This document shows positions 7,638 to 27,679 of a DNA stretch of 64,000 nucleotides, piece by piece. This DNA is from a virus, in the IMG/VR virus record IMGVR_UViG_3300045988_174509; one strand, given 5' to 3'. A program made the position numbers and the translations under genes. The notes beneath the pieces are model-generated. The model did not search any database and was not told the origin of the DNA. It saw only the letters and a program-made list of their open reading frames with translations. How positions within the stretch are numbered: the first letter of the stretch is position 1; each line of letters opens with the position of its first letter.

Positions 7638-7643
7638 TCCTTC

Positions 7644-10160
7644 ATGGCTTTTAACTTCAATTCTCCGGCAGTTAATTTCGGAGGTTCCAGCATGCCCATC
7701 GGGCAGAGCTTGAACTCCGACAGACCTTTTGATCCGGACGTTCTTCTGGGGGTTCATCCGGTACTGAACTGGGCAACCCCGATTGTGCGCAATGTCATGT
7801 TCTACATTGACCGCAGGCTCAAAGGAAACCATGAGCTGGACCAGTTTCCTATTGGTTCTCCCTGCAAATTCATTACGGGAACCCTGGTAACTGATGCCAT
7901 GAAAGAGGCGGTGCTTACCCACATTGAACCCCTGCCTCAGTACGCCAAGGACAACGTGTATCGGTTTTTCTATGTCGTGCCTCCCACGCTTCAGCACCTG
8001 TACAACATCCAGGACATGAAGAAGAATACGGACGGCTACACGCTGGAAAGCACCAAGGGTACCGGGAGGATGAATGAGCCTCCCAGTCCACCCGAGGACC
8101 GATTCAAGCAGTTCTACGAGATTCAACGGGTGTTTGTGTACCTGCGGGAGCGCGGGTATGCGCCCGCGGAAATCGGAAGCTTTGACCCCAGCAACGAGGA
8201 CGTAACACCCGTGTTTGCAGAGGACCATGCTTACACTGGCTATGATGCCCAGCTTGTCAATGAGGAGGTAGTCCCCTTTGAGGAGGACTACATGAACAAG
8301 GTTTTTGTGCGGGTCATCCGGATTTACAAGACTCTCCCCGGCCCAGTAATCAAGGAGCTTCTTACCTATAATTCCTACGTCAACGGCCAGACTGTCTGGA
8401 TTCAGGGAGCCCCGGATTCCGGGATTCAGGGAATCGCTGAAGTAGGGCAACGCTGGAGCCGTGAAGTGTGGGGGTTCCCCACCCCGACTGGGACTTCTAA
8501 TACCTCGGCCGAAATTCCTACAATGCCCAAGGAGGCTCTTGAGGCTACGAGAATAAACAAAGGCTGGGACAAGGGGAGCTTTCCCTGCTTGCAGATGTAC
8601 GTCATTACATCCATGTACAAGTCCAACAGCAATATCCCTCTGGATGAAAAAACGGACAGCCTGTCCGGGAATTGCTGTAACCCGCCCCCGGCTTTTGTCC
8701 GGTGCGTCAATACCTCAACCACCAGAAGCGAGACTATTGACTGGTCTTCTTCCAGCACCCTCCCCCCGCTCAACCCCCCAGACCCCAGTGAAAACTGTAG
8801 CCAATGGCGCGTGGATGCGAGCGTCGTCGTGCGTGAAGGATACTCTCATAAGGAAACGCGCAAAACTTGCACGACTTATGACATGGTAGAACACTACTTT
8901 GAGACTGAGATTGACAGCAAGACCGGGAATGAGATTGTGGTTCAATACACCCGGATTGACAATCCTGCCCAGGACCCGGAAGGACCGGAATGGGTTGAAG
9001 TGACCGATAGCATTACCGGAGTTAAAACCTGGGTGCGGGATAATACGGCGAGTACTAAAACAGACATTATGAATTGCGAGTCCCCGGAACTTATCCCGGG
9101 ACTAGATGATAGGCGTTTTTTTGTTTTTGCCTGGGGGGACGACTCCCTTCTCACCCGGATTCAAACTACAGACCCCAAGTTCTACTCCAAAGGTTCTTGC
9201 AGGATTACTTCCGTCACACTCTACCTTGAGGACCCCAATTGGATTACAAGCTCTCCCGACAACATTGTCCGTCTATCCATGTTTATTTACAGGGCGGATG
9301 GAACCTTTCTTAGAAATTTTACTAGCAGTGAGGTAACTGTAGCCGAGAATGGTTATGTCTCTTTTAATGGGCCTGCTAGCGGCTTTGAAGTAAATCCGGG
9401 AGAGCGAGTCTGTTTCTGTCTAATAGGGAGTACCTCGCAGGGCAGTACCAAAATCAGTAAGGGGCTTTGTGGTATTAACGGGAACCCTAATTCAGGCTGG
9501 TGTGATAGTGCCAAAGGGGCTCCAGACTATCCCAATTCTACTACAGCCCCCTACATTTTTTTTAGAGTAACAAGCACCCTGTCGGAAACTCCAATTCCAA
9601 CGGGCTACTTGAAATACAGGAAGTGGATCAATCCGTGCCATGCGGTAGAGATTCTTCGCCCGGTTCCCGGGCTTGGCTGGTACAAGAAATATACTACGGT
9701 TCAAAACTATTCCTTCCCGCCCATCCTGGGTAACTTCGGCTGGCAGGGATGGGACACGCGGCCAGACATTTCCGGGCGAGTGGGTGGACGCTACTTCCCC
9801 CAGATTTTCATGAACAAGGACGGCTACTCCGGCCCGTGCCAAGCACTCGTTGAGGAAATATTCTCACCTGACGGGACACTGCCCTCGGGCTGGAATTTGG
9901 GTGTGGACGTGCAATATGTGACAGCCTCCGCCTCTATCTCTACTCCCTTGGTCTCTTTCAACCTTCCTGCCTGCCTGCATACGTCCATAAACATTGTTGT
10001 CACGATCGGCACCAATGATGGCGTATGGCAATCGGGAAGTACTTCTTACAACCTTCCGGCTACCAAGCATACCACTTGGAAGAACGTAACGATGGTGCAT
10101 GTCTTCCCATACCAGAAAGGGGCTTACATACGCAAGACAATCATCTACCCGCCCTCGTAA
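7644..10160 (+). CDS. large virion structural protein (tail/adsorption apparatus candidate)
   Basis: 838-aa ORF in the late + operon with Ser/Thr/Gly/Asn-rich beta-like composition. The 328-aa ORF on the opposite strand here is an antisense artefact. Confidence 0.5.
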   Translation: MAFNFNSPAVNFGGSSMPIGQSLNSDRPFDPDVLLGVHPVLNWATPIVRNVMFYIDRRLKGNHELDQFPIGSPCKFITGTLVTDAMKEAVLTHIEPLPQYAKDNVYRFFYVVPPTLQHLYNIQDMKKNTDGYTLESTKGTGRMNEPPSPPEDRFKQFYEIQRVFVYLRERGYAPAEIGSFDPSNEDVTPVFAEDHAYTGYDAQLVNEEVVPFEEDYMNKVFVRVIRIYKTLPGPVIKELLTYNSYVNGQTVWIQGAPDSGIQGIAEVGQRWSREVWGFPTPTGTSNTSAEIPTMPKEALEATRINKGWDKGSFPCLQMYVITSMYKSNSNIPLDEKTDSLSGNCCNPPPAFVRCVNTSTTRSETIDWSSSSTLPPLNPPDPSENCSQWRVDASVVVREGYSHKETRKTCTTYDMVEHYFETEIDSKTGNEIVVQYTRIDNPAQDPEGPEWVEVTDSITGVKTWVRDNTASTKTDIMNCESPELIPGLDDRRFFVFAWGDDSLLTRIQTTDPKFYSKGSCRITSVTLYLEDPNWITSSPDNIVRLSMFIYRADGTFLRNFTSSEVTVAENGYVSFNGPASGFEVNPGERVCFCLIGSTSQGSTKISKGLCGINGNPNSGWCDSAKGAPDYPNSTTAPYIFFRVTSTLSETPIPTGYLKYRKWINPCHAVEILRPVPGLGWYKKYTTVQNYSFPPILGNFGWQGWDTRPDISGRVGGRYFPQIFMNKDGYSGPCQALVEEIFSPDGTLPSGWNLGVDVQYVTASASISTPLVSFNLPACLHTSINIVVTIGTNDGVWQSGSTSYNLPATKHTTWKNVTMVHVFPYQKGAYIRKTIIYPPS

Positions 10161-10208
10161 TTTCCAAGATTTATTTCCATATAATAATTTACTAATACTA
10201 AAGCTTTT

Positions 10209-10958
10209 ATGACTTTTACCACAACACCTTACCTGATCTACGGAAATCTCCGTGACGAGCTCTCCATGCTCATCATGGGCAGGCCGCCCAAGGACAACGA
10301 GCCGGAGTTCCGACGTATCCTGAAAGAGGCCATATCCCAGCTGTTGAATGAAGCCGCCGCGTCCCCTGATTCTTTGACCGCATTGCAGTACAATGACCTG
10401 GACATTGGTGCCGTCATTTCCCTGCCGCCCCAGTATGGAAGCATCATTGACGCGTGGGCCGGAAACACCAGCAGGAAATACACCATCATTGACGCCCGGA
10501 CTTTTGAAACCCTGTACCCCCGATCCCTGGATGCCACGACATACCAATTCCAGGCCCAGCCCCTTATGATTGATCTTGGCCTGAACCAGGAATCCGGGAG
10601 CCGGGAATACAAGGTAATCAGCGGGAATGGAAACCTTCCGCCCCAGGGCTCTCTTTCTCCCAAGATCACTGTGCAATGCCGGGTCAACCTTCGTCCGATC
10701 TATCAGAATATTTACGACGATGCGTCATGGCCGGACACGCTCCGCATTTATCCGGATTGCCAGCCCGCTATCAAGGAGATGATGCTCTCCATTGTCTATG
10801 GGGAGACCGGGAATACGAACGCCCAGATTGACAAGTACACGCTGGCCGTCAAATATCTCAATGACTACCTGCGCCGCTACAGGCAGGGCACCTTTACGGC
10901 TCCTAACTTCATTCATCAGGGCGGACTGAACATTGCCCCCAATCCGAACATTCTTTAA
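10209..10958 (+). CDS. hypothetical virion protein
   Basis: 249-aa ORF, ATG start, in the late operon. Confidence 0.45.
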   Translation: MTFTTTPYLIYGNLRDELSMLIMGRPPKDNEPEFRRILKEAISQLLNEAAASPDSLTALQYNDLDIGAVISLPPQYGSIIDAWAGNTSRKYTIIDARTFETLYPRSLDATTYQFQAQPLMIDLGLNQESGSREYKVISGNGNLPPQGSLSPKITVQCRVNLRPIYQNIYDDASWPDTLRIYPDCQPAIKEMMLSIVYGETGNTNAQIDKYTLAVKYLNDYLRRYRQGTFTAPNFIHQGGLNIAPNPNIL

Positions 10959-10961
10959 TAC

Positions 10962-12224
10962 ATGGCACAAAAACCTATTGACAAAGCAAGGAACCAGGGA
11001 ACCGAGCGGGGGACAGCCCAGCAGAAAGTCCTGGATGAATTGAACACGGGGACCCCGGCGGGGATTCCCCAGCGCGTGGCCACCAATACTGACCCGACCA
11101 AGCCCGTTACCCCCCAGCAACTGGAACCGATTGCGGCGGCCAACAGCAATGAAGCCGTGAAGCCCCTGAACCAGGGAGCCCCAGCTACCCCCGCCAGCCA
11201 GCCCCAGGGCCTGCCCAACATTGCCGCAGGGAGGGTTGCTGATGGAGTAGTAGCCGCAACCTTCGATACGGCTGTAGCTCCTAATCCGGCAGAGATGACG
11301 AGAAGCGAGCTTGACGCCTACCGCCAGCAAAGAGGATTGACTCCCGAGCAGAAGAAGGAAGCGGATGCCATCGCCTTTAAATGGATGGAAGGAAGCATGC
11401 CCCAGCAGAAGGGGCAGTTCCCCGGAGCCGTGGACCCGAACAGCGCGCAGTACGCCCAGAACCAGCAGAGCACCTATCAAGCTCTTACCCAGCGGGCCGC
11501 AACCCAGGGGCTGACCACCTCGGAAAAAGCCAGCATGCTTGGGGGAGACTTTGCCTACAGGATCAGCCAGGGTACCCCCGGAATGCCTGGAGCAGTAGCT
11601 CCTGGGGCGTCTATCGCCTCCCGGCTGGCGGCCAGCTCTGCGGGTGCGGGGACCAAGGCGGCCACGGCCCTGGATACTCAGTTTCAAGAATACCTGGGGA
11701 ACAACCTGGAAAAATTCAACCAGCTACCAGCGGAGAAACAGCAGGCTCTCAAATCCGCCTGGATGAAATCCGCAACCCAAGCCGGACTCCTGAATCAGGG
11801 AGCCCCGGATTCGGCTCCAGCCGTCGGTGGTTCCGGGCTTCAGGGACTCCCGGGATCAGGGGCTCCTGCTCCGGCCAAAACCGTAAGTGGCGCGGCGGCG
11901 CGAGATGAGCAAATGCTGAAGCTTGCCCAGGATACCACAGCCTCCCCTCAAGCCAGGGAGCAGGCGGCGGCCTACGTCAATGTGAAGAGAATGTACGCCA
12001 ATCCCAAATTCGCTGACGAAAGGAAAGCCTTCCAGCAAGCTGAACGGAACTGGGTTAAATCGGAAGCCAACTTCTTTAAAAATCATTTGAACAGGAAAGA
12101 CCCCCGCTACAAGGATCGCTACCGGGACTACAAGAACTTCCAGAAGGGAGATGCCCGCACCAAGCTGATGGTCTATACCGAACTGCTGAAGCATCCGCGC
12201 TTCGCTTCTCTCGGGTACAAATAA
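10962..12224 (+). CDS. low-complexity Ala/Gln/Pro-rich protein (internal virion/ejection protein candidate)
   Basis: 420 aa, extremely A/Q/P/G-rich, with a C-terminal basic region. It lies immediately upstream of the giant gene. Confidence 0.45.
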   Translation: MAQKPIDKARNQGTERGTAQQKVLDELNTGTPAGIPQRVATNTDPTKPVTPQQLEPIAAANSNEAVKPLNQGAPATPASQPQGLPNIAAGRVADGVVAATFDTAVAPNPAEMTRSELDAYRQQRGLTPEQKKEADAIAFKWMEGSMPQQKGQFPGAVDPNSAQYAQNQQSTYQALTQRAATQGLTTSEKASMLGGDFAYRISQGTPGMPGAVAPGASIASRLAASSAGAGTKAATALDTQFQEYLGNNLEKFNQLPAEKQQALKSAWMKSATQAGLLNQGAPDSAPAVGGSGLQGLPGSGAPAPAKTVSGAAARDEQMLKLAQDTTASPQAREQAAAYVNVKRMYANPKFADERKAFQQAERNWVKSEANFFKNHLNRKDPRYKDRYRDYKNFQKGDARTKLMVYTELLKHPRFASLGYK

Positions 12225-12246
12225 AAAAGCTTGAGAATTTACTCTT

Positions 12247-12283
12247 GCCTACCATGCCTCGGTGTGGTAGGCTTTCTTGTATT
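12247..12283 (+). terminator. hairpin (GCCTACCA/TGGTAGGC) followed by TTTCTTGTATT
   Basis: 8-bp stem with a 10-nt loop and a U-rich tail, between 10962..12224 and the giant gene. Confidence 0.4.
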
Positions 12284-12330
12284 CGGAGCGCAACACAGCT
12301 CCAACCTGTTTACATACCTCATATTACATT

Positions 12331-15300
12331 ATGGCTATTGATTTTTCAACCTTGGGACCCATCCAGCCTGGGCTGGATGCGCGGCAGGAAAGCCAAGCAC
12401 GAGCCCGTACCAATTTCGCCCAGCGTCAGGAAGACCGCGGCAGGACAAAAGCTGTAGAGCCTTTGAAAGCGATGGCGGATTTTGATTCCCTTCTTGCCAA
12501 GGAGCTTGGCTCTCTGGAAAAAACCCAGAAGACTGAAGCCCGGCAGGAGAAAACCGAAGCCCGGGCTGAGCGAAGCGAGGCTCGTGCCGAGCGGAGTGCC
12601 GAACGTGCGGAAACCTCCTTTGAGCAGGGACAGAAGAAATGGGACTGGGCACTGAATGACCGTGCCCGGGAAGAAGCCAACCGCGATCTTGCCAAGATTA
12701 CCAAGAGTTCTACCTCAGGCATTAACGCTCAAAGCATTGAGGAGCTGGAGGATTGGGTGAAAACCCCGGAGACCGAGCTCTATGATCTGAAGACGGCAAG
12801 CTCCGATGAGAATGCACTGGGGATTATTGCCAGCCGCCTGGGGGTTGAAAAAATTGAAGGAGCTCTCCCGACCCCGACCACCAGTGAGGATGTTGAAACT
12901 CCTCCCTACTTCCTTTCCCGGCAGGGTCTGGCCCTGCGGCCCGATGGTTCCTACATTGTCACCAACAAATTCATTGATTCGGTAGCCCGGAGCAAAGCCG
13001 ATTCTTCCAAGCTTGCCTCTGCCGTTTCCAAGCAGTTGAATGCTGGCGTCAAAGCCTCCAACCGTGATGGCCTGTCCTCTACTCCCATTACCGCCACGGC
13101 TACAGAAGAAGAAATTAAGGAGATGATCGACACTATTCGTAGTGGTGACAAGAAGGTCCATGCGGCAGTAAAAGCTATCTATGATAAGCACATACCAGAA
13201 GACAAGAAGACTCAAGCGTCTGAAGCTCAAACAGAGACTGAAACCCCTGAAGCCCAGGAAGGAAAGACCCCGGTGGGGGAGCCTGGAAGTGGCGGTTCCT
13301 CAGCCGATGAAACCCCTGGTAATTTTACCTCTACGGTTTTAGATGAAGCTGAGTGGCTTGCCACGAACCCGGCCAAGTTTACCGAGCTGACCCAGCAATA
13401 TCTGAACTCCCTGGTAGAGCAGGGCATGAACGCCCCGGAAGTCCAGCGGGCCGAGCTTGCAGGCCAGCGGGCGGTAGCCAGGGAGAACTATATCCGTGGC
13501 GTTGAGACTCTGCTGGAGCGCACCTTCCAGGATGTGGACCCAAAGGAAGCAGGGGAAGCTCTCCGAAATGAGGCCCGCGTGGCTGAGAAAGTGCTTGACA
13601 TGTACGGCGGCGCACCCGCAGAGGCTCTGGCCCAGATTGAACGCAGGACCGAGGAGCTGGCCAAGGCACACCCCGGCAATGAAAGCCTAAGAAATCAGGA
13701 CAAGGCCAAGGCTATTTACGAATACCTTGACTCCGTGATTCCCGGATTCAATGCTTCAGGGGCAGAGGCCGACGCGCTTCAGCAAATCGTGGAGGAGAAT
13801 ATCGTCGGGGCTACGAAAACCCCCAGCCTTAACGATGCCGCGACGGCGGCCATGCGCCACTACCGCAGTAGCCTGGGGCAGGTATCCGACATGACGGGCA
13901 CCGTGATGGAAGGAGCCACGCGCTTCAACATCCCCGGGCTCCGCTATGAAAACAAATCCGATGACGAAGCTACCCGGAATCCCCTGGAAAAAATGACCTG
14001 GGAACCCGGGAAGGGGGGCTGGAAGTTTGGCTTCAAGCGCAGTAACGGGAGCATGGAGGATTCTTTTTCCATCAGCTATGAAGGCCTGCGCTCCTACATG
14101 GCCGAGCACAAGCTCAACCAGCAGGACGCACTGAACTCCATTGCCTTCCCCACTACCCTGGGGGATGTGGCCTACGCCAAGGACGGGCTCCTCTTTGCCA
14201 GGAACCCCTACACCGGGGAGGTGGAAGAGAATGCCACGCTGGCGATGAACCCGACGGCTCTGTATGATAACTCCCTGTACCAGAAAAGCCTGGAGGGCCT
14301 GCGCTCTTCGGGAATGAGCGATGAAGAGATCGCGGCTGTTGACAAGAAGTATCAGGATGCCAAGGCGCGATCCGCCGCTGAGACCGTACAGGGCCTGCTC
14401 CAGACCTATTCTGAAATGCAGAGCATGGCGGAACTGACTGGCAGTGAAACGCTTGGAAAGATTCTGGAACCTGATTCCAGCGTGGACTTCCGCATTTTCC
14501 ATGCCCGCATGAAGCGGGACAGGATGAGCGACACTTTTATCCTGGAGCAATGGAACGACAAGGAAGAGCAATGGGACAGACAGGTCCAGCGTGTCATCCA
14601 GGGAACCCAGCGCAAGGCCGTTGACATGGGGGTCACTGCCGGGCTGGCGATTGCCCAGCAACTCAATGGGGTTCTGGGCCCCAGGGATTCCGCCGCGACT
14701 CTGAGCAACCAATGGAAGATTGTAAATGAATCGCGCGAAGCCGCAACCCGGGTAACGCAAAGCAACCTGTTTACCGAATGGGGTACCGAGCTGGCATTCC
14801 TGGCTGTCCAAATGGCGGGCACCGGAGCGGCGGGTATTGCTGGCCGCACCGCAGGGGAGGCTCTTGCTACCCAGGGAATCCGCCGGGTAGCCGCGGGGAT
14901 GGCCCTGCGCTCCCAGGCCGCCGCTACAGTAGCCCGCCCCGGCATTGCGCAAAGTGCGGAAGTTGCTTTCTCCCGCACGATGGAGGGGATTGTCCATGGG
15001 GCCACGCGCTCCTGGGGTGCCACTGCCGGGACCCAGGCGGCTATCTTTTCCCAGGTAGCCCCCTATGCCTATGGTGATATTTTCTCCACCCAGCTGGACC
15101 GGGCTATCAAGCACGCGGAAACCCTGCCACAAGATCAACGCGGCGCATACCTCAGTGATGCCCAGAACCTTGCCAACCTTCGCGCCACGGCGGGTGCCGT
15201 CATCGTAGGGATGGCCTCTATGGCAATCAACTCCCGCGCTGGTATGAACACATTCATTACCAAGAGCGTAGGAGGTAAGACCTGGGTGCCTGAAAGCATT

Positions 15301-18300
15301 AAGAAATTCCGGCAGGGGAGCTCCACGATTGCCAGCAAGGTGACGGGGAACACCACGCGGGAAAGGCTTTCCAGTTTTGGCGCGCTCTCTACCAAGGAGA
15401 AAGTGCTCTACATGGGCAACAAGCTCTACCAGGGCGGGAAGCTGGCCGTGGAAGGCGCGGCTGAAGAACTGACGGATGAATTTTCCGAATGGCTCTGGAC
15501 CTCGCTGGTGAAGGATGGCTACATTGCCGAGGACCAGATCGGGACTACTGCCGAGATTGCCGCCGCCGCCGTCAAGATTGCCGTGCTTGGTGCCATCGGT
15601 GAAGTCACGGCATCCCGGCTTCCGGGAGCCAGGGAATCCGTGCCTCCGGAAATCCTGGCACAGGCACAGCGGGCGGATGTAGGCATCAAGCCCGAAGAAA
15701 CCCTGCATGCGCTCAATGCAATCTCCATAGACATGCGGACGGAACTGGAAACCAAGCAGGGTACGCTGGCCCAGACCATCGCCACTGCGGGGGACAGCGC
15801 AGTAGAAGTGCTCAATACCAACCTCTCCGAGCCAGTGAAAGCTGAATACGTGGAGGGCAACAAAGCCGTAGCCGCCAAGGCCGGGGAGATCGTGGACAAC
15901 ATCAGCAATGCTCCGGTTTATGTCAACGAGCTGGCCGCTGAGGTGGGAGGGGAAGCCCTGACTCCCGGAGTCCTGGAAGCATGGACTCAAAACAGCATCG
16001 TCCTCGGAGCCCAGAACGTAACCCTGCTGAGAAGCTTTGCCCAGAATCTCAAGGAAGAGATAGCCACGGCGAGCCCGGAAGGGAGGGCCCGGCTGGTAGA
16101 GAACGCCCTCTCCAACATCACGGAGCGGATGATCAACCCCACCCCGGAGAAGAAGGAAATCATGCGAAGCATGGTGGACCAGATTGCGGAGATTTACAAC
16201 GAGGCTCCGGTAGAGCTTACGCAAGTGGATGACTCTCTTAACTTTATGCCCACTGGCAATGAGACGGTGGACGTAATTGGGGAAGTAGCCAGCATGGCTG
16301 GACCTGCCGCGGTGACTACTGGAGTAGCTACCGAAGCTCCGGCTCCTCCCATTCAGATTCCCCAGCTTCCCGGAGCTTCTGCCCTGGATACAAATGCCGA
16401 GGTAGAAGTATTGGGAACCCGGATGCCTGTGCGAGACATCGCCCCCGTCAAGCCGGAGCCCCTGGAATCTCCTACGGCTCCGCCTCTTGCCGAGCTGACT
16501 GATGCCTCCCTTTCCGGTCCCCTTGATTCCGCCAGCCCGGAAGCCAGGGAGTGGGCAACCCAGGTAATCACTGGCCTGGAATCCTTCGACCCGGAAACCG
16601 CGCAATGGATTACCAAGGGGCGGGAAGCCACGACCTTGACGGATGCCGAGGTTGCCCGCATGGTGACGCTGAACCAGCTTACCGGGCCTGCGGCCCCCCT
16701 TACTGTAGATGATACAGGAAGAACGCTTGTCACAGAACCTAATGCTATCCGGTATAACAATCGCGCGCCTGCCGAAATCGCAGGTGAGCTGAACGATTAC
16801 CAAAGTCAAGTTCTTTCTTTCATGCCGGAGAAATCCGGAGACGGTCTTGCCCTGGTGGATCGGTTCCTCAGCACCCAGGAAATCACGCCCCAGGAGCGCA
16901 GAGTCCTTGAGTCCGTGAGGGAGTATCTGAGAAAAAACAATCTGGGATTCGGGGTTTCACGGATTCATACCGACATGATTGAAAGCTGGAATGCTCCGGC
17001 CCTGGTTGACTTTGCCGACCCGGACTCTCCGCTCATGGTTGTCAACACTTTATTTGCCCCGGTTGCCGGGGACTTCAAAAACACCTTCATCCATGAGGCC
17101 GTGCATTTGGTGGACCAGCACCAGCGGATGACCAACCCTGACTACGGGAACCAGCTTCGCAGTATGAAGCTGGCTCTCCGGGAAAACTGGAACGAGCTGG
17201 TGGGCATCCTGGAAAAGGAAAGCCAACAGGCCCCGGATAATGAGAGCAGGCTGGCGATAGAAACAGCGATCGAAGACATGGCCTATGGCCTTGACATCAG
17301 TGAGGCCCAGGCCGTGGCGAACAACGACAATGAATTCGCCTCCGTGCTTCTGAGCAACCCGGTGTTCCGCCATCTTGCAAGTCAGATGAAAGAAGGAGGA
17401 GAATCAATTACATTTGAAGACCTTTCCTCCCCGGCTACCCTGGCGGCCCTGGCGGAGTCAGTAACCCCTCCGTCTTCTTTCCTTGGCCGGGTATTTGAAA
17501 GCCTGAAGAATGTCTTCAATAAAATCCTTGGCCGCTACAAGAACCTGGAAAAGGATAACTTCTCCCTGCTGAAAGACATGGGCGAAGAGTGGACGGCATG
17601 GAAGGAGCGGCATTCCGAGGCCGCGCGCAAGCTGGATGAGGCGGCACCCTTGGATGGGAGCCGCTGGCTGATACCGGATGATCCCACAGCCATGAAGAAC
17701 ACCGGGTATCAAGATGCCGGATTGATCCTTCGCACGCAGGGCCAGCAAATCCCCACTCCTACCGCAGACACAGGAACCGCCTTCTCCCCTACCCGCTACG
17801 GATTCATGGGGGAAGTGGGAGGCAACCTGGGTGAGAACTGGTTTAACCTCACCATGGCTGGGGCGCGGCAAGCCGCTACATGGTTCAACATGGGCGCGGC
17901 CAAGTTCGGCTATCAGAAAGCGATCAACAAGCTGGACTCCCAGCAGGTGCCTGTCTTTACTGAGCAGGATTCCCTGCGGGTGCGGGAGCAGATGACGGCC
18001 CAGGACATGGGCCAGCGTTATGTCATCCAGCAGGTGCACCAGATTGCCAACTGGGTCAATGCCATGAAGCTCAAGCCTGAAGAGCAGAAGTCCCTGGCTA
18101 TTGCTATCCGGGACTACGTGGGCAACACGGACAACCTTGCTCGGCCCAAGGAAATCCAGCGCATTTATGCGGACACCCAGACCCAGCTTCAGCAGGCCGC
18201 CGTGGACCGGGACCGGGCCGTGGCCGCCGCCAAGGAGGGGGTTGTCAGGACCAAGGCCGCCTATGAGAAAGAGCTTGCCGCCATTGTGGGGCGCATCCGT

Positions 18301-21300
18301 GAGAGCACCAGCGAAGGAGTGATCCTTGGCCTGCGCTCTGGGCTGGACACTGCGCGGAGATTCATCCGCGACAAGTCCATGCCGCCCAAGAACGATGCGC
18401 TGGCCCAGATGCAGGCTCTGATGATAGCACGCCAGCAGGAAGTGAACCAGATCAACGAGCAGGTCAAGGCATTCAAGGCCGCTTCACCCGAGTTTGCCGA
18501 TGGAGTGGACTTGCTCCGCCGCGAAGTAATTGCGAACCTTAACGAGGCTCTGGCCGGGGAGCTTGACCTTGCCGCTCGCCAGATTTCCCGTGACCTTGCC
18601 GAGGGGGAAACCTCTCCGGTAGAACTCCTGAAGGAAATCCGCAACAGCCTCGGGCTCAAGGATATAGGGAAGCTCGGAGACATGGGTTCCGCCATAGAAA
18701 AGGCCGTGAAGAATTACCGCAAGCTGGCCCTGGCCTCCGCTCCTGAAGCGGCGAATGCTTTGCACAATATAGCACTGGCCCAGGAACGCGCAGGCCGGGA
18801 GATCGCCCAGGCGAACGCCGTCTATGAGGGACGCACCCGCCGTGCTGGCTATGACAGCAAGGGGATTTACCATCCTGCCGGGACCATCTACCAGAACCGG
18901 GACTTCCGCATTGAGCAGGAACAGCGGCACATGCAGGCCGAGTACCTCAAGAGGAGGGAGCGCGCCAGCGAATTGCTGAACCAGTATCCGGCCATCAAGC
19001 AGAGGCTCACCCGCGCCCGCAAGCAGATTGCCCAGAACCAGTATGACATCTACAGCTTCCTGGGGAGCGAAGCCGGAAGGCTGAGCGCGGCGGACATGAA
19101 CTGGCTCCATCGCACCTACCTTGCCGTAGGCGCGGGGAATGCTGACGCTTACCGAAAGGCCATGATGGAAGCCCTGGAAAATCCTCAAGGCAAGAAGGTT
19201 TCCGAGTACCAGCTTGCCCGGATTTACAGTGCCACCCGTGCCTACATTGAAGAAAATAATTCCAAGGTGAACGGGTATATCAGCACCGTGGTGGACCGGA
19301 TGAAGAACTATGCCGCCCTGTATGACCGACTCACTGATTCCGGGATTCAGGTTGACGGGAAGCCCTCCACCTACTCCGACCTGTTTAAGGGAATCCCCGG
19401 CGTGGAATCCTTACAGCAGGGAATCCTGAAATTCCTGAATGAGAATTACAGTGAAATGCAAATCTTGTCGGACCTGAAGCACGGGGACAACATGGTGGAA
19501 ATCGTGGACAAAGCCCTGGCGGTATCCCGGTATCTGGGAGACCAGCATCCCGGGGAAAGAAAGAAGCTGAGGGACCAGCTCAACCAGATCAAAAGGCATC
19601 AGGCCGACTACGCCAGGGACGCCTTCCTGCTGGAGAGCATGGGGGTAGAAGAGCATGACCTCCGGGGGTTTATCACCAGTGCCGAAGACACAGCGGAGCT
19701 TGCCGCCCGGCTGGAACAAACCGGATGGGTGGATTCCCGGACGGTCAAGACAATCATGGATGCTCCCGAGGCTACCATGAGCCAGCGGGTGACAGCGTTG
19801 ATAGACTACCTTCGCGCCAAGGCGGACCTTCAGATGCAACGCCTGGGTCTTGGCTATACCATTGACCCTGAAAAGCTTACGTCGATGAACCGGACAAGCC
19901 TCCGAAAAGGGATGGTAGAACTGGCAAACCAAGCCTTCGCCTCCACCCTCAGCAAGAAGAGGAGCACGGAGAACCCGCTGGCCCTTCGGAAAAACCTGCC
20001 GCTCTCCGAGCGCATCATCCTGGGTGAGCTGGGTGATGCCAGCGTGTCGGAAGCTACCGGATTGATTGAAGCATCCCTGTCCTACCAGAAGGATACGCTG
20101 GTCAACACCGTCATGAGCGATGAAGCGGCCAACACCTTCCTGAAGCTGGGACTGGTGACGGCCCGGCCCAAAGGTGATGAGGATGTCCTTCTCTCCTTCA
20201 AGAATTCCCACAGCAAGCTCAATGGGACGTATGCCAGCCATGAACTGGCGGACTCCCTTTACCGAATCTTCAGGCCTACAGATGACGTGATGGCAAACGA
20301 AAGCACATGGCCCGGCATCAAGAAATACTGGAGCACCAACTCGGTGGGCACGATCCAGAAGCTGGGAGGCATGGCGAACATCGCCGTGCTGATCAAGTCC
20401 CCGGCTTCCACGCTTCGCAACCTCTATGGTACAGCGATGCAGGGGATCAACTCCGGCATTTGGTTCCCGGCTTATGGGCTCAAAGAGGTAAGCGGGATGG
20501 CCGTTGATCTGGTCCGCATGTGGAAACTGGAAAGGGCGGCCAAGGATAATACGCTGGCCGGAAGGGAAGCCCAGGAAAAACTCCTGGAAGCTGAAGAACG
20601 GTGGTCAAAAAAAATCAAGCACTACTATGACCTTGGCTTGCTGGACAATGATACCATGCAGGTGTTCCGCAATCTCTGGAAGAGTGAAGAATTCCAAAAG
20701 GCCATAGAAGGAAAGATTGATCTGACCCTGGATGAATCCGATGGGCTTACAGACATTGTGGTAGGGGACCGGAAAGAAAGGACGCTGGCAAACCGGACGT
20801 TCCGGTTCCTCACTACAGGGATCATGAAGGGGGCGACCGTGGCCTACAGCATCCCGGATGCCATGGCAAAGATTGCCAACTACACCCATGAGGTACGCAA
20901 CAGCAGGAACCTGATGGCCGTGCAACTTGAGCGCGCCAAGCTGACGGAAGAAAGCAAGCGCACCCCATGGCAGAAGGAGCTGGTAGAAGCCAGCGCGGAC
21001 GAGAATAAATGGAACGCACTGGTGGAACACACCGCGGCGGACCGGACGAAGAACCTGTTCCCTACGGGGACGCGCACTCCGAAATGGGTGAAGACCGTGG
21101 GGCTTGTCGCCCTTCCCTTCTTCATGTTCCAGTATCACACCGCCAACTCGGTGGCCTACAACCTGGGCTACATGGTGCAGGAATTGCAGGAAGGAACCTG
21201 GGCTCTCCGAAATGGGATGACCAAGGAGGGGAGCAAGCTGATGGCCAAGGCTTTGAGCCGGGCGGCGGGGACTGCCGCCGCCGTGGTAGCCCAGGAAGAA

Positions 21301-22500
21301 ATCCTCCGCTTCCTCTTCCAGTTCATGGCCCAGGGTGCCCTCAAGCTTCTGGATAAGGACGATCAGGTCCAGCTGATTACCAACGCAGAAGTCATGAAGA
21401 CCGCATCCAGGCTCGGACTGATCCCGGACTACGACAAGTTCGGCACCAACCTGGGGTTCTTCAACAAGGGCACGGGGCGGTGGAGCTACATGAACCTGGA
21501 GTATGCCGCTCCGTTTAAGAACGTAGCCTCCCTGGTCAGCAGTGCCTGGAAGATGGCAACGGCGGAAGATGAAGGAAAGAAAGAAGGCTGGGATGAAATG
21601 GAGAACCTGATGGAGAGCACCATAGGGAGCCCCTCCATGCTCCTGTCTCTGATGAACACCTACCTATTCGACCCGAACGACAAGTTCAACTACAAGGCCG
21701 CGCCGGAAAAATCAGGGAACATCAGCCTTGCGGATGCCGTGGGGAATGCCGCCCTGATTTCCTTCGGGTTCCAGCCAAGCCTGGGACATGGCTACACCTA
21801 CAAGCCCCTGGAGCGGATCGCTACGGCGATCAACAAGGAGACTCCCGTCTGGTCTGCGGTTTCTTCCATCCTCCACCAGAGCTTTGAGGATGATCCCAAC
21901 AACGTGTGGTATGAAACAGCCCTGAAGCATGCGGGGTTTGGCATGCGCCATGGCAAGTCCTTTGTGGATGCCGCCGCCAACGGGGTGAAGACCGCCAAGG
22001 TTTCCGACAACCACGCCAAGCGGCTCCGTGTTCTCAGTGAAAGGTATCTGGATATTCCTATTGACACCCTGAAAGAGTTCACTACCTTTGACATAGCCCA
22101 GAGGAAGGAAGCCTATGCAGACCTGGGGAGTACGCTTAACGGGATCAAGGCCCTGACTGAAACACTGTACGGAACCACCGCCGGGCGCACTGCCTTCCGG
22201 GATATTCTTGACCGGAGCAATGTCAGCCTGAAGACTGCGCGCTGGGCCATGCGCGGAGTCATGCCGGAGGTGATCACCAAGGACGCAGTAGTGAGTGCCT
22301 TTGAACGGCTGGACCGTGAAGCCCGGAAGCCGGGAACCAGTGAAGCCCGGAAGCCGGGAACCAGTGAAGCCCGGAAGCAGAGAATCCAGGAGCAGAAGAA
22401 ACTCATCCGCCGGGTTTACCGGGAACGGGGAGTCAAGGTAACAGACCAGATGGAATCTGCAAGTACGTATAAAACGTTATTTAAAAATCTGGAGCAATAA
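12331..22500 (+). CDS. giant multidomain virion protein (~3,390 aa) with HExxH zincin motif; possible ejected/virion-packaged enzyme
   Basis: A single uninterrupted 10.2 kb ORF. It has an N-terminal EARAERS-type repeat, a Gly/Ala-rich hydrophobic stretch, FIHEAVHLVDQ (HExxH), and a C-terminal 8-aa tandem repeat (EARKPGTS x2.5). Start moved to ATG 12331, because the track start 12277 lies inside the upstream terminator hairpin. Confidence 0.7.
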   Translation: MAIDFSTLGPIQPGLDARQESQARARTNFAQRQEDRGRTKAVEPLKAMADFDSLLAKELGSLEKTQKTEARQEKTEARAERSEARAERSAERAETSFEQGQKKWDWALNDRAREEANRDLAKITKSSTSGINAQSIEELEDWVKTPETELYDLKTASSDENALGIIASRLGVEKIEGALPTPTTSEDVETPPYFLSRQGLALRPDGSYIVTNKFIDSVARSKADSSKLASAVSKQLNAGVKASNRDGLSSTPITATATEEEIKEMIDTIRSGDKKVHAAVKAIYDKHIPEDKKTQASEAQTETETPEAQEGKTPVGEPGSGGSSADETPGNFTSTVLDEAEWLATNPAKFTELTQQYLNSLVEQGMNAPEVQRAELAGQRAVARENYIRGVETLLERTFQDVDPKEAGEALRNEARVAEKVLDMYGGAPAEALAQIERRTEELAKAHPGNESLRNQDKAKAIYEYLDSVIPGFNASGAEADALQQIVEENIVGATKTPSLNDAATAAMRHYRSSLGQVSDMTGTVMEGATRFNIPGLRYENKSDDEATRNPLEKMTWEPGKGGWKFGFKRSNGSMEDSFSISYEGLRSYMAEHKLNQQDALNSIAFPTTLGDVAYAKDGLLFARNPYTGEVEENATLAMNPTALYDNSLYQKSLEGLRSSGMSDEEIAAVDKKYQDAKARSAAETVQGLLQTYSEMQSMAELTGSETLGKILEPDSSVDFRIFHARMKRDRMSDTFILEQWNDKEEQWDRQVQRVIQGTQRKAVDMGVTAGLAIAQQLNGVLGPRDSAATLSNQWKIVNESREAATRVTQSNLFTEWGTELAFLAVQMAGTGAAGIAGRTAGEALATQGIRRVAAGMALRSQAAATVARPGIAQSAEVAFSRTMEGIVHGATRSWGATAGTQAAIFSQVAPYAYGDIFSTQLDRAIKHAETLPQDQRGAYLSDAQNLANLRATAGAVIVGMASMAINSRAGMNTFITKSVGGKTWVPESIKKFRQGSSTIASKVTGNTTRERLSSFGALSTKEKVLYMGNKLYQGGKLAVEGAAEELTDEFSEWLWTSLVKDGYIAEDQIGTTAEIAAAAVKIAVLGAIGEVTASRLPGARESVPPEILAQAQRADVGIKPEETLHALNAISIDMRTELETKQGTLAQTIATAGDSAVEVLNTNLSEPVKAEYVEGNKAVAAKAGEIVDNISNAPVYVNELAAEVGGEALTPGVLEAWTQNSIVLGAQNVTLLRSFAQNLKEEIATASPEGRARLVENALSNITERMINPTPEKKEIMRSMVDQIAEIYNEAPVELTQVDDSLNFMPTGNETVDVIGEVASMAGPAAVTTGVATEAPAPPIQIPQLPGASALDTNAEVEVLGTRMPVRDIAPVKPEPLESPTAPPLAELTDASLSGPLDSASPEAREWATQVITGLESFDPETAQWITKGREATTLTDAEVARMVTLNQLTGPAAPLTVDDTGRTLVTEPNAIRYNNRAPAEIAGELNDYQSQVLSFMPEKSGDGLALVDRFLSTQEITPQERRVLESVREYLRKNNLGFGVSRIHTDMIESWNAPALVDFADPDSPLMVVNTLFAPVAGDFKNTFIHEAVHLVDQHQRMTNPDYGNQLRSMKLALRENWNELVGILEKESQQAPDNESRLAIETAIEDMAYGLDISEAQAVANNDNEFASVLLSNPVFRHLASQMKEGGESITFEDLSSPATLAALAESVTPPSSFLGRVFESLKNVFNKILGRYKNLEKDNFSLLKDMGEEWTAWKERHSEAARKLDEAAPLDGSRWLIPDDPTAMKNTGYQDAGLILRTQGQQIPTPTADTGTAFSPTRYGFMGEVGGNLGENWFNLTMAGARQAATWFNMGAAKFGYQKAINKLDSQQVPVFTEQDSLRVREQMTAQDMGQRYVIQQVHQIANWVNAMKLKPEEQKSLAIAIRDYVGNTDNLARPKEIQRIYADTQTQLQQAAVDRDRAVAAAKEGVVRTKAAYEKELAAIVGRIRESTSEGVILGLRSGLDTARRFIRDKSMPPKNDALAQMQALMIARQQEVNQINEQVKAFKAASPEFADGVDLLRREVIANLNEALAGELDLAARQISRDLAEGETSPVELLKEIRNSLGLKDIGKLGDMGSAIEKAVKNYRKLALASAPEAANALHNIALAQERAGREIAQANAVYEGRTRRAGYDSKGIYHPAGTIYQNRDFRIEQEQRHMQAEYLKRRERASELLNQYPAIKQRLTRARKQIAQNQYDIYSFLGSEAGRLSAADMNWLHRTYLAVGAGNADAYRKAMMEALENPQGKKVSEYQLARIYSATRAYIEENNSKVNGYISTVVDRMKNYAALYDRLTDSGIQVDGKPSTYSDLFKGIPGVESLQQGILKFLNENYSEMQILSDLKHGDNMVEIVDKALAVSRYLGDQHPGERKKLRDQLNQIKRHQADYARDAFLLESMGVEEHDLRGFITSAEDTAELAARLEQTGWVDSRTVKTIMDAPEATMSQRVTALIDYLRAKADLQMQRLGLGYTIDPEKLTSMNRTSLRKGMVELANQAFASTLSKKRSTENPLALRKNLPLSERIILGELGDASVSEATGLIEASLSYQKDTLVNTVMSDEAANTFLKLGLVTARPKGDEDVLLSFKNSHSKLNGTYASHELADSLYRIFRPTDDVMANESTWPGIKKYWSTNSVGTIQKLGGMANIAVLIKSPASTLRNLYGTAMQGINSGIWFPAYGLKEVSGMAVDLVRMWKLERAAKDNTLAGREAQEKLLEAEERWSKKIKHYYDLGLLDNDTMQVFRNLWKSEEFQKAIEGKIDLTLDESDGLTDIVVGDRKERTLANRTFRFLTTGIMKGATVAYSIPDAMAKIANYTHEVRNSRNLMAVQLERAKLTEESKRTPWQKELVEASADENKWNALVEHTAADRTKNLFPTGTRTPKWVKTVGLVALPFFMFQYHTANSVAYNLGYMVQELQEGTWALRNGMTKEGSKLMAKALSRAAGTAAAVVAQEEILRFLFQFMAQGALKLLDKDDQVQLITNAEVMKTASRLGLIPDYDKFGTNLGFFNKGTGRWSYMNLEYAAPFKNVASLVSSAWKMATAEDEGKKEGWDEMENLMESTIGSPSMLLSLMNTYLFDPNDKFNYKAAPEKSGNISLADAVGNAALISFGFQPSLGHGYTYKPLERIATAINKETPVWSAVSSILHQSFEDDPNNVWYETALKHAGFGMRHGKSFVDAAANGVKTAKVSDNHAKRLRVLSERYLDIPIDTLKEFTTFDIAQRKEAYADLGSTLNGIKALTETLYGTTAGRTAFRDILDRSNVSLKTARWAMRGVMPEVITKDAVVSAFERLDREARKPGTSEARKPGTSEARKQRIQEQKKLIRRVYRERGVKVTDQMESASTYKTLFKNLEQ
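22318..22380 (+). repeat. 24-bp tandem repeat x2.6 inside the giant ORF C-terminus (EARKPGTS)
   Basis: gaagcccggaagccgggaaccagt repeated, in frame. Confidence 0.7.
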
Positions 22501-22518
22501 ATCCTTTACAAGGACAGG

Positions 22519-22556
22519 CGGCTTGGTATCCTTCGGGGTATCAAGCCGTTTTTATT
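22519..22556 (+). terminator. rho-independent terminator, 13-bp stem with UUCG tetraloop and T5
   Basis: cggcttggtatcc-ttcg-gggtatcaagccg, then ttttt, immediately after the giant ORF stop. Confidence 0.6.
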
Positions 22557-23072
22557 ATGCACGAACGAGAAGTAATCCAGGAAATTGTTGAGGCACAGAA
22601 CCGACCAGGGTTCAGGGACGTGGAAAGCATCCTGAGTCAGGAAGAAAAAAAAACCGAGGATGTAGTCAACCATCCTTCCCACTACACCAGCCATCCCTCT
22701 GGCATTGAATGCCTGGAGATTACCCGGCACCTTCCCTTCTCTCTGGGAAATGCCGTCAAGTATTTATGGCGCGCGGGATTAAAAGGGGGAGAGGAAAAAA
22801 GAATAGAGGACTGGAAGAAAGCCGGATTCTATTTGCAGGATCATCAGAATAATATCGGCAAGGTCTTTGAAACATTCAACCTGCACCTGATCATAGCCCG
22901 CTTTCATTCCTGGGTGAAGACCGCAAGGGAGGGAGTAACCTGGGAGGATCGCGTTATCGACTTGGTTCTCTCCCTCTATGATGGAAGTGATCTGGTAACC
23001 ATTCGCAGAGACCTGATCCTCATCAAGGCAATTGGAATTGTCAACGAAAAAATTGTTGACGCTGAGAAATAA
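22557..23072 (+). CDS. DUF3310-like phage protein
   Basis: 171 aa. The NHPSHY...GIECLEI...GNAVKYLWRAGLKG...IEDWKKAGFYL pattern matches my recollection of the DUF3310 family common in phages. Confidence 0.4.
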   Translation: MHEREVIQEIVEAQNRPGFRDVESILSQEEKKTEDVVNHPSHYTSHPSGIECLEITRHLPFSLGNAVKYLWRAGLKGGEEKRIEDWKKAGFYLQDHQNNIGKVFETFNLHLIIARFHSWVKTAREGVTWEDRVIDLVLSLYDGSDLVTIRRDLILIKAIGIVNEKIVDAEK

Positions 23073-23164
23073 ATAAGGTATATACAATGCAGGGAGACCT
23101 AAAGCCTCCCTGATGAAAGAAAAGGTATGAGGGCCGGGAAGAATTTCTTCCTGGCTCTCCCTTT

Positions 23165-23641
23165 TTACAGGAATGATCCCTCAGCAAAAAGCTGGTAGGC
23201 CCGGGCATACTTCCCGCCCCACCCAATTTCGATATGGGATTTCCCATATCGGTAGAGCTCTTCCTTCTCCATGCCAGTGAAAAGGATTTTATATTTCAGC
23301 AGGTCATCCCGAAGATAAAGCTTGACAGGCTTCCCATTGGCCGGGGAAATTCCCGGGAGGTGGAAGGAACCAATGGGGCTCCGGGCAATGAGCCTGCGCC
23401 AGAGCTGGCGGTCAATGCCGGATTGAAGAAAATCTTCCTCATGCTCCATGAAAAAAGTGTAAAGGGAAACATGGGTTCCCTCATAGTCCCCGCAATACCT
23501 GGGCTTATAGGAAAAAATTCTTGCATGAATTGATCCGCGTTTGCAGGGAATGCACTGAGCGCGGGCTATGCGATAGACCTGGGAGCGGGAAAGCTTCAGC
23601 CGGGAGGCCGCTTCAGATACCAACACAAATTCTTCCTTCAT
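23165..23641 (-). CDS. HTH DNA-binding protein (Xis/AlpA-like N-terminus)
   Basis: VSEAASRLKLSRSQVYRIARAQ helix-turn-helix motif. The track start is GTG at 23650; the first ATG is at 23641. Confidence 0.4.
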   Translation of the reverse strand: MKEEFVLVSEAASRLKLSRSQVYRIARAQCIPCKRGSIHARIFSYKPRYCGDYEGTHVSLYTFFMEHEEDFLQSGIDRQLWRRLIARSPIGSFHLPGISPANGKPVKLYLRDDLLKYKILFTGMEKEELYRYGKSHIEIGWGGKYARAYQLFAEGSFL

Positions 23642-24237
23642 TTCCAGCACGCGGATTTAATATCAAAGTGGCACTTGACGGAGAGATCACATCCGCATAA
23701 TGTGCAATACAAAACAGGGCGACCTTCAGCCAGACTTCCCCGTTCCTTCACCAGCTCATGCAAAAACTTGCGGGCCGAGCCCCCGGCTCCGCATGATTCG
23801 CATCCCTCCTTCTCCATGTCCGGCGGAGGTACAGGCGTGGACTTGGGGCACCGGGAGCAAATCTCATAGCGGCGGCGGGCTTCGGATATATCTACGAACC
23901 TGTGCCCTCTGCGGTACCAAAGGATCATGGTGAGAAAAAAGCCCAGCACTTTCCTGGCTGTCATCGGCTGGTGCTCCGGCCAGGAGATTCCTTCATCCCC
24001 GCAGGATTCACAGTATCCTTCCGGGAGCTGGAGACACAGGGCCTGATGGAAAGCATCTTCGTCATAGGTCTCATCGTTGTTGCGGAGAATGGAAGCCATT
24101 TGATTCCGCAGTTCCACCAGCGTGGGTGCCGTAATCAAGGTTCCCTGGAGTCTGGGGCTCAGGGCTTCAGGGATTCGGAACTTCCACCCGCCCGGGGGCG
24201 TGACATGCAGATTGGGATGAGCTAAAATTTTAGGCAT
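23638..24237 (-). CDS. Cys-rich zinc-finger protein
   Basis: 199 aa with several CxxC pairs (CESCGDEG, CSRCPK, CESCGAGG, CTLCGC). Confidence 0.45.
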   Translation of the reverse strand: MPKILAHPNLHVTPPGGWKFRIPEALSPRLQGTLITAPTLVELRNQMASILRNNDETYDEDAFHQALCLQLPEGYCESCGDEGISWPEHQPMTARKVLGFFLTMILWYRRGHRFVDISEARRRYEICSRCPKSTPVPPPDMEKEGCESCGAGGSARKFLHELVKERGSLAEGRPVLYCTLCGCDLSVKCHFDIKSACWK

Positions 24238-24292
24238 GCCCTGATGATAGAGGCATGCCTAAAGAAAAGCAAGACGGAAAATGGGAAGCCTT

Positions 24293-24571
24293 CTACTTCA
24301 GATAAAGATCAGCATCCTTTTCCGAGATGGGGTAAGCACAGGCATCATTCAGACCAGCACTTATATCATAGAGACAGGAAGTCAGCTCCTGGTTTTCAGC
24401 GGCAACAATGCCCAGCCTGTATTGTATAAATTCCTTTTTTTTCTGAAGAGTCTTGAACCAGTTGCGCCATGCCTCCAACTCCTTTGCTACTGCATAAGAA
24501 TCAGAAAGCAAGGTATCCAAAGAAGGAGGGGTGTCCTCTAAATTTTTTATGTACTTTTCTAATGTTGACAT
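24293..24571 (-). CDS. hypothetical protein
   Basis: 92-aa ORF with ATG start, overlapping the upstream gene's end by 13 nt. Confidence 0.35.
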   Translation of the reverse strand: MSTLEKYIKNLEDTPPSLDTLLSDSYAVAKELEAWRNWFKTLQKKKEFIQYRLGIVAAENQELTSCLYDISAGLNDACAYPISEKDADLYLK

Positions 24572-27666: not shown

Positions 27667-27679
27667 AAGTTCTAGTGGT

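Follow-up and report, generated by a model that had tools for sequence, protein, structure and literature searches.

The window analysed here is a stretch of 64,000 nucleotides of viral DNA (IMG/VR record IMGVR_UViG_3300045988_174509), and our subject is a single giant gene on its + strand, the last of the structural operon, which encodes a protein of 3,389 amino acids (aa). The original prediction, made from the sequence alone, had proposed that this protein might be a virion RNA polymerase (vRNAP) of the kind packaged by phage N4, and had named a polyvalent ejected protein with a peptidase domain as the alternative. The evidence favours that alternative, namely the zincin motif, a conserved C-terminal module and the lack of any detectable polymerase, and we consider it fairly probable that the giant protein is an ejected internal virion protein with a zincin-like domain and without a polymerase.

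Architecture of the giant protein

The open frame runs uninterrupted on the + strand from 12277 (TTG) or 12331 (ATG) to 22500. The ATG is favoured as the start because the homologues open with the same N-terminus, MAIDFSTLGP. The gene and its parts are as follows.

12331..22500, + strand: giant gene, 3,389 aa with no cysteine (list of open reading frames, ORFs, and translation)
12532..12615, + strand: charged Glu/Ala/Arg repeat TEARQEKTEARAERSEARAERSAERAE at aa 68-95 of the translation, with a comparable charged stretch in the homologues
14620..15612, + strand: Gly/Ala-rich, moderately hydrophobic region, aa ~764-1094 (conservation, glycine-plus-alanine content, hydropathy)
15631..16530, + strand: gap-rich, weakly conserved linker rich in Ala, Pro and Glu, aa ~1101-1400, with 0-3 invariant columns per 50 aa
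16894..17412, + strand: zincin-like metallopeptidase (MPTase/C1-like) domain, aa ~1522-1694 (conservation, hhalign, hidden Markov models, HMMs)
17428..19977, + strand: long helical region, aa ~1700-2549, variable to ~2100 and conserved at ~2100-2530 (AlphaFold, conservation profile)
19978..21777, + strand: conserved all-alpha C-terminal module, aa ~2550-3149 (hhalign, Foldseek, search of representative proteins)
22316..22378, + strand: perfect 24-nt tandem repeat near the C-terminus, 2.6 copies with 100% match, encoding EARKPGTS

The giant protein can be aligned over its whole length with eight homologues (26-100% identity), which all come from unannotated metagenome data in the Logan assemblies of sequencing runs; with such conservation the ORF did not arise by chance. 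Members of the family are very rare: when 1.84 billion representative proteins were searched with a profile of aa 2250-3300, only three full-length clusters at 50% identity came up, plus fragments. Queried both as a single sequence and as a profile, the giant protein has no match in Pfam, PHROGs, NCBIfam or the PDB sequences, nor, by tblastn, in 50,697 phage records. A word-index protein search returned two proteins for the profile of the C-terminal module and none for the profile of the N-terminal 1,120 aa, a search that missed even the family itself.

Most of the sequence features listed in the original prediction are present as described. The single 10.2 kb ORF, the N-terminal charged repeat (TEARQEKTEARAERSEARAERSAERAE), the long Gly/Ala-rich hydrophobic region, the HExxH motif FIHEAVHLV and the C-terminal 8-aa repeat EARKPGTS all stand at the positions given above. 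The DDTGR segment, too, is present, at residue 1460 just past the end of the linker, but it is not conserved, and the homologues have TDNGES, NTGES or VRGKS. The copy number of the C-terminal repeat varies within the family, with 2.6 copies in the window and 1.6 both in the 90%-identical P0002 and in the ~62%-identical P0003-P0006. The near-identical P0001 is shorter by 8 aa, a length consistent with one repeat copy fewer.

The Gly/Ala-rich region is conserved among the homologues and reaches its peak glycine-plus-alanine content of 45% (60-aa window) at residue 817. Its end is marked by an invariant acidic motif (E1041 G1042 E1045 E1046 D1049 E1050 W1054), and aa 1076-1094 form the top hydropathy segment. 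From its composition, this region (aa ~764-1094) is a candidate for a membrane-interacting part of the protein.

The HExxH motif, the only one in the protein, occupies aa 1588-1592 (nt 17092-17106). H1588, H1592, D1595 and E1668 are invariant in the family, and E1589 is kept in seven of the eight members. E1668 lies within an invariant EF and aligns with the glutamate of the N4 NEF motif, making it a candidate third zinc ligand; the sequence has the gluzincin-type combination of HExxH and a downstream glutamate as candidate third ligand. In P0003, HKAAH replaces HEAAH at window aa 1589 (catalytic Glu to Lys) while close relatives keep the Glu, and this homologue may be an inactive variant or an assembly error.

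Residues 2130-2448 of N4 gp50 form a zincin-like MPTase (Iyer et al. 2017, PMC5512222), a domain described as the hub of ‘polyvalent’ proteins delivered with phage or plasmid DNA, for which a processing role was proposed (PMC5512222); the same region is named C1 in the 2026 structure paper (PMC13434306). In a first hhalign comparison the zincin region of the giant protein paired with ‘ETLIHELVHA’ of N4 gp50. The region-specific alignment spans 138 columns (aa 1522-1681 against N4 ~2173-2323) and includes the downstream NEF glutamate. Against the C1 region of the vRNAPs of Schitoviridae, the score was 40.6 (probability 40%, E 3e-4); reversing the template lowered it to 23.9, and ten shuffled templates scored 9-18. 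The best domain found with a C1 HMM lies at aa 1583-1694, and Pfam Peptidase_M91 was matched by one family member (E 0.006). AlphaFold predicts few strands around the HExxH, with a predicted local distance difference test score (pLDDT) of 60-76, and Foldseek gave no significant match there.

The C-terminal module is most strongly conserved at aa 2901-2950 (PTGTRTPKWVK...PFFMFQYHT). The search of representative proteins gave weak matches of the module to P0016 and P0018-P0020, among which P0020 scores 1e-54 against phrog_22602, labelled ‘virion structural protein’. A direct PHROG hmmscan of the giant protein gave no match to that model at E ≤ 0.01. By tblastn, P0020 leads to Cellulophaga phages phi19:3, phi13:2 and phi18:3, Pelagibacter phage HTVC027P and Pseudoalteromonas phage vB_Pun_Y3, in which the matched genes are the last or near-last late genes. 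With hhalign, the module of the giant protein is related to these proteins at a probability of 99.7% (E 2.8e-26), and still at 97.7% (E 2.3e-12) when four cultured-phage proteins alone are used. Foldseek against BFVD, queried with a low-confidence model, gave a probability of 1.00 to proteins of Cellulophaga phi19:3 and to ‘LPD-containing’ and ‘ART-PolyVal’ proteins. In GenBank, gp123 of Cellulophaga phi18:3 carries a structural-protein label ‘based on experimental MS/MS proteomics’ (tandem mass spectrometry), and in the vB_Pun_Y3 homologue an ART-PolyVal domain stands ahead of the module. Because its relatives by hhalign and Foldseek include both the ART-PolyVal protein of vB_Pun_Y3 and the phi18:3 gp123 detected by MS/MS, the module is, as judged by sequence, one that recurs at the C-terminus of large late proteins with differing N-terminal cargo, one of which was detected in virions. 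The 1,027-aa ART-PolyVal module protein of vB_Pun_Y3 (L011 1-8300) is directly preceded by a polyvalent ‘DdrB-like ParB’ protein of ~3,400 aa, and cargo and module seem to be split over two genes there.

AlphaFold models were made of aa 1380-2560 and 2530-3300. Both consist almost entirely of long helices and are of low confidence (mean pLDDT 51 and 52). With these models as queries, Foldseek against the PDB returned only non-significant helical or coiled-coil matches (SMC/MukB); the PDB library may predate the full-length N4 entries found by sequence. In the stretch between zincin and C-terminal module (aa ~1700-2549) no domain was recognisable.

Search for an RNA polymerase

Four Pfam models are specific to vRNAPs (vRNAP_dom, vRNAP_dom_2, vRNAP_plug and N4_RNAP_helical). 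All four match N4 gp50, at 1e-22 to 1e-97; for the eight family members they gave no match, even with the cut-off relaxed to E ≤ 1. A tblastn search with the polymerase-plus-C1 region of N4 retrieved 352 phage records (Schitoviridae), down to ~21% identity, and the reverse tblastn from the giant protein reached no Schitoviridae vRNAP or other phage record. When the family was compared by hhalign with a seven-member alignment of Schitoviridae vRNAPs, with its polymerase domain alone and with T7 RNA polymerase, the probability stayed below 1% in each case. HMMs of the vRNAP domains gave scattered matches that fell at differing positions in different members. As a control, hhalign recovered the known relationship between N4 and T7 RNA polymerase at only 2% probability, though at the correct motifs.

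Motif searches gave the same picture. DDTGR was considered as a T/DxxGR polymerase motif and rejected, given its lack of conservation in the homologues. A DxDxD-type metal-binding motif was likewise rejected, as the pattern D.D.D is absent from the whole protein. The first 1,380 residues are the least conserved, gap-rich and partly of low complexity or Gly/Ala-rich, a composition that appears unlike that of a catalytic polymerase core.

On its defining polymerase domain, membership of the giant protein in the vRNAP family is thus not supported, and the hypothesis of an N4-like vRNAP put forward in the original prediction finds no support in the Pfam, tblastn, hhalign and HMM tests alike. The AlphaFold models (aa 1380-3300), of low confidence, also speak against it in being almost all helical; Foldseek against the PDB gave no significant match, a result that carries little information with models of this quality. 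The prediction had noted that no N4-type RNAPII genes are visible, and this agrees with the PHROG scan, in which no RNA polymerase-like match (gp15/gp16 type) was found among the window proteins tested.

Late operon, neighbours and regulatory signals

The giant gene closes a block of + strand genes that begins at 46.6-64 kb with a terminase, a 764-aa gene, a 421-aa gene and a tail-fibre-like gene and resumes at 1-22.5 kb. The large terminase is followed by genes of 764, 105, 399 and 421 aa and then by the tail-fibre-like gene of 697 aa. At the left end of the window lie further + strand genes, the final four of 838, 249, 420 and 3,389 aa. Besides the large terminase, the window encodes a primase/helicase, a family-A DNA polymerase, a helicase and an exonuclease. 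The features around the giant gene are these.

7644..10160, + strand: late gene of 838 aa, the third before the giant gene, the counterpart of N4 gp53 in size and position
10209..10958, + strand: 249-aa late gene, two genes upstream, in the slot of N4 gp52
10962..12224, + strand: gene of a 420-aa A/Q/P-rich low-complexity protein, directly upstream, in the slot of N4 gp51
12248..12271, + strand: small hairpin in the gap between the 420-aa and the giant genes, CCTACCA ... TGGTAGG with CTTTCTTG after it, read from the sequence
22516..22551, + strand: intrinsic terminator-like hairpin of 16 pairs with a TTCG loop and a T-run, 16 nt past the stop codon
22557..23072, + strand: 171-aa gene, the next gene after the giant gene
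23129-23159: second terminator-like hairpin, between the 171-aa gene and the leftward gene cluster

The order of genes of about 840, about 250 and about 420 aa, giant gene, small gene and convergent genes is kept in the homologue locus L014 and partly in two more distant loci. The 838-aa gene appears in L014 as an 843-aa gene, and the 420-aa gene as a 417-aa gene there and as a 356-aa gene in L002. The 838-aa protein has no PHROG or Pfam match and no hhalign similarity to N4 gp53 (tail plug, 885 aa), of which it is a counterpart by size and position. The 249-aa protein shows no homology to N4 gp52 and has no hydropathy segment above 1.2, and hence no hydrophobic helix; the 420-aa protein shows no similarity to N4 gp51.

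Several of the earlier observations on gene order were confirmed. The giant gene is indeed the final gene of the late operon, with a terminator and convergent genes after it; the translation of the preceding gene is A/Q/P-rich and of low complexity (420 aa); and the strong UUCG-loop terminator is present as a 16-bp stem with TTCG loop and T-run at 22516-22551. The claim of an N4-like late-operon order with matching protein sizes holds for position and size, while the labels portal, scaffold and capsid are assigned by gene size and order. The 764-aa and 421-aa proteins do not resemble the portal and coat protein of N4, and the proteins so labelled have no PHROG, Pfam, PDB or BLASTP match. The 383-, 325-, 838-, 249- and 420-aa proteins are also without a match in PHROGs, Pfam and the PDB sequences (window 50945-61444 and 1-12224), and within the presumed structural module only the terminase (weakly) and a tail-fibre fragment gave matches. 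With the presumed portal and capsid and most of the tail genes unmatched, the phage lineage appears uncharted.

Further observations concern individual neighbours. The 250-aa late gene at window 5988-6740 corresponds to a 242-aa gene at L014 3670-4398 with a PG_binding_3 match, and is a probable endolysin or peptidoglycan-binding protein within the late block. At the P0003 locus, the gene directly after the giant gene (L014 20286-20819) carries DUF3310 and is the counterpart of the 171-aa gene; in L001 (upstream) and L002 (opposite strand) DUF3310 is found on other nearby genes, and not on the one that comes next after the giant gene. Base composition is strongly split (window 10000-24000 against 24000-34000), with 55-60% GC and a positive AT skew in the giant gene and its nearest upstream neighbours, and 41-44% GC in the leftward cluster.

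Turning to signals, the small hairpin at 12248..12271 could act as a weak attenuator or terminator. The original prediction had also described GC hairpins upstream of the leftward genes, of the type used as promoters by N4-like vRNAPs. This was not borne out: a search of 23-35 kb found no repeated family of GC hairpin promoters, and at the head of the leftward cluster stands instead a near-consensus sigma70-type promoter, TTTACA-16-TATAAT (33465->33438, minus strand). With no detectable polymerase, and with this promoter ahead of the leftward genes, the phage probably relies on the host RNA polymerase for early transcription. Adjoining the sigma70 promoter, in the ORF-poor stretch of 33.3-35.5 kb between the leftward cluster and the rightward replication genes, are three AT-rich palindromes of the CATAAAATTTTATG type, ~40-45 bp apart (33653-33666, 33692-33711 and 33737-33750), which look like operator or iteron sites. 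A perfect palindrome of 13+13 nt, GCGGGCAGGAAATTTCCTGCCCGC, lies at 30779-30802 between two leftward genes.

Proposed role and comparison with known systems

We infer the packaging and ejection of the giant protein, its engagement with the membrane, and its proteolytic activity and substrate from the features set out above. Encoded at the end of the structural operon, the protein would be produced late and packaged into the capsid, probably by way of its conserved all-alpha C-terminal module. At infection it would leave through the short tail once the other ejection proteins have passed, with the Gly/Ala-rich region (aa ~764-1094) engaging the cell envelope or inner membrane and the remaining chain entering the cell as loosely connected helical domains. 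The zincin-like domain (HExxH 1588-1592, E1668) might then divide the polyprotein into working parts, the role suggested for MPTase hubs of polyvalent proteins, or cleave a host target. Its overall layout resembles that of N4 gp50 without the polymerase, and the two may be distantly related.

Several points weigh against this picture. The profile negatives are weak on their own, because hhalign with small alignments does not recover even the N4-T7 link significantly. Homology to N4 gp50 is not established, with negative results for the N-terminal and C2 domains and a probability of only 40% for C1. The presence of the protein in virions is argued by analogy, the MS/MS detection being that of a relative, phi18:3 gp123. 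The low confidence of the AlphaFold models (pLDDT 51-52) leaves the zincin fold a prediction, and model coverage starts at aa 1380, so that the N-terminal stretch lies outside it. About three quarters of the chain is without an assignable domain, and other activities could hide there. The 838-, 249- and 420-aa neighbours are unlike gp53, gp52 and gp51 in sequence and are without hydrophobic helices. Lastly, the window may hold only part of the genome, and the + strand block may be interrupted.

The rival explanations differ in how much of this evidence they can accommodate. A very divergent N4-like (T7-type) vRNAP, transcribing the early genes after ejection, would fit the size of the protein, its last-gene position and the sizes of its neighbours, all as in Schitoviridae, and a C1-like zincin domain is apparently shared with vRNAPs. 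Small-alignment profile methods are too weak even for the N4-T7 relationship, the models cover only aa 1380-3300, and the window proteins tested include no recognisable phage RNA polymerase besides. We nevertheless judge it very unlikely. The Pfam vRNAP models that match N4 gp50 match none of the eight family members at E ≤ 1, tblastn joins 352 Schitoviridae records and not the giant protein, and hhalign and HMM comparisons either give nothing or give matches at inconsistent positions. Moreover, DDTGR is unconserved, aa 1380-3300 are almost all alpha-helical in the low-confidence models, the N-terminal 1,380 aa show little conservation, many gaps and in part low complexity or a high Gly/Ala content, and the leftward genes have a near-consensus sigma70 promoter where a hairpin-promoter family was not found. 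A two-barrel vRNAP of crAss type, like phi14:2 gp66, would suit the position of the gene, as giant packaged proteins stand at the end of the structural block in crAss-like phages too. That reading is scarcely credible, however, as there is no DxDxD anywhere in the giant protein, the PHROG and PDB sequence searches gave no match, and the models, of low confidence, are helical and without barrels. The phi14:2 vRNAP is mentioned in PMC13434306.

The tail tape-measure protein of a long-tailed phage would suit a chain that is long, helical and Gly/Ala-rich, and the weak BFVD matches (probability 0.03-0.28) include tape-measure proteins. We rejected this candidate on gene order, the giant gene being the last before a terminator and convergent genes with no distal-tail or baseplate genes after it. 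At about 1.5 Å per residue, a tape measure of 3,389 aa would correspond to a tail some 500 nm long. The homologues of the module include Pachyviridae, whose member Gundel has podoviral morphology, and no tube, sheath or chaperone frameshift genes were recognised among the window proteins scanned, all of which makes a tape-measure role highly improbable. A packaged multi-effector (polyvalent) protein for anti-defence or host takeover, acting mainly as an enzyme through aa 1-760, aa 1700-2530 or the C-terminal module, is less easily set aside. The MPTase hub domain is present, the C-terminal module is found in ART-PolyVal or LPD proteins, conserved polar residues occur in aa 2100-2530 and 2550-3150, and the general logic of polyvalent proteins (PMC5512222) would apply. 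Beyond the zincin, however, searches of Pfam, NCBIfam, PHROGs and PDB gave no effector domain, and the predicted structure is extended and helical, not a series of compact enzymes. We consider a mainly enzymatic role unlikely without being far-fetched; it overlaps with the favoured reading of an ejected, zincin-bearing protein and does not exclude it.

Among known systems, there is a clear relationship to the phrog_22602-type proteins (phi18:3 gp123, phi19:3 gp129, HTVC027P gp85 and the vB_Pun_Y3 ‘ADP-ribosyltransferase’). By sequence, the giant protein is a clear relative of these over its last 600-800 residues, sharing a homologous all-alpha module of ~600 aa, and the genes are, like the giant gene, the last or near-last of the structural block. 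Gly/Ala-rich N-termini, like that of the giant protein, occur in some of the relatives that were found in protein databases (P0020-P0022). The phrog_22602-type proteins differ in being one third to one half its size (1,027-1,935 aa), in having no zincin and in carrying other N-terminal cargo, such as ART-PolyVal.

The polyvalent proteins built around an MPTase hub (Iyer et al. 2017) are likewise giant, late-encoded and presumably delivered with DNA, and have an HExxH zincin in mid-chain. In contrast to these, the giant protein has one recognisable catalytic domain in a mostly helical chain and is not a string of enzymes; the Pfam LPD, ART and MPTase-PolyVal models gave no match to the family, whereas polyvalent proteins have at least two effector or LPD domains. 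It thus belongs loosely to the phage-type polyvalent or ejection proteins. With T7 gp16 and the internal core proteins of podoviruses it shares the proposed role of the largest, last-ejected protein that reaches the inner membrane or cytoplasm, and a helical character. The giant protein, at about 2.5 times the size, is unlike T7 gp16 in sequence and fold, and the enzyme domain of T7 gp16 is a transglycosylase rather than a zincin.

Phage N4 offers a further comparison. Its gp52, gp51 and gp50 form an ejection cassette in which gp50 leaves last (PMC13434306). The N-terminal domain of gp50 has predicted membrane-spanning helices and inserts into nanodiscs; after it, as ‘beads on a string’, come the polymerase and a C-terminal domain (C2) that is mostly helical and has no known fold (PMC13434306). 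The full-length structure of gp50 was published only in 2026. In all seven Schitoviridae inspected, the vRNAP gene is the last late gene and faces convergent genes. The proteins are of similar length (about 3,400 aa here against 3,240-3,500 aa), and so, in part, are those before them: N4 gp53, gp52, gp51 and gp50 have 885, 150, 644 and 3500 aa, and Vibrio phage phi1 has 734, 135, 422 and 3240, against 838, 249, 420 and 3389 here. Further upstream, the N4 portal (763 aa), gp58 (115), gp57 (405) and coat protein (401) stand against 764, 105, 399 and 421 aa. The positional analogy with N4 is real, and is one of size and order only.

Within the chain, both proteins have a Gly/Ala-rich, membrane-prone N-terminal part, a likeness of composition without detected homology, and in both an HExxH domain with a downstream NEF-type glutamate, a predicted zincin in the giant protein, precedes a huge, mostly alpha-helical C-terminal region without a known fold. 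This domain lies at aa ~1590 in the giant protein and at ~2230 in N4 gp50, and helical sequence continues beyond it for about 1,700 aa here and about 1,125 aa in N4. Unlike N4 gp50, the giant protein has no T7-like RNA polymerase domain by Pfam, tblastn or hhalign; its comparison with the N4 N-terminal and C2 domains gave hhalign probabilities of ≤ 4% each and negative HMM searches. The neighbouring ejection proteins are without similarity to those of N4, and neither hairpin promoters (23-35 kb) nor RNAPII genes (window proteins tested) were found.

An appreciable but lesser possibility is that the giant protein is a true, very distant homologue of the gp50 ‘chassis’, composed of a membrane-inserting N-terminal part, the C1 zincin and a giant helical C-terminal part, in which the RNA polymerase was either absent from the start or lost later. 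On this reading, N4-like cassettes would have as their giant third ejection protein an older delivery platform with exchangeable cargo, a polymerase in Schitoviridae, an ART in other marine phages and other cargo here; as a smaller possibility, aa 2100-2530 or 1-760 may hold a new enzymatic activity. Giant packaged proteins are the route by which the DNA and first activities of short-tailed phages cross the cell envelope, and N4 gp50 is their best-studied example. A polymerase-free protein with the size, position and layout of gp50 would separate the function of delivery from that of transcription, and would offer a natural comparison for the roles of the conserved zincin and the huge helical C-terminus.

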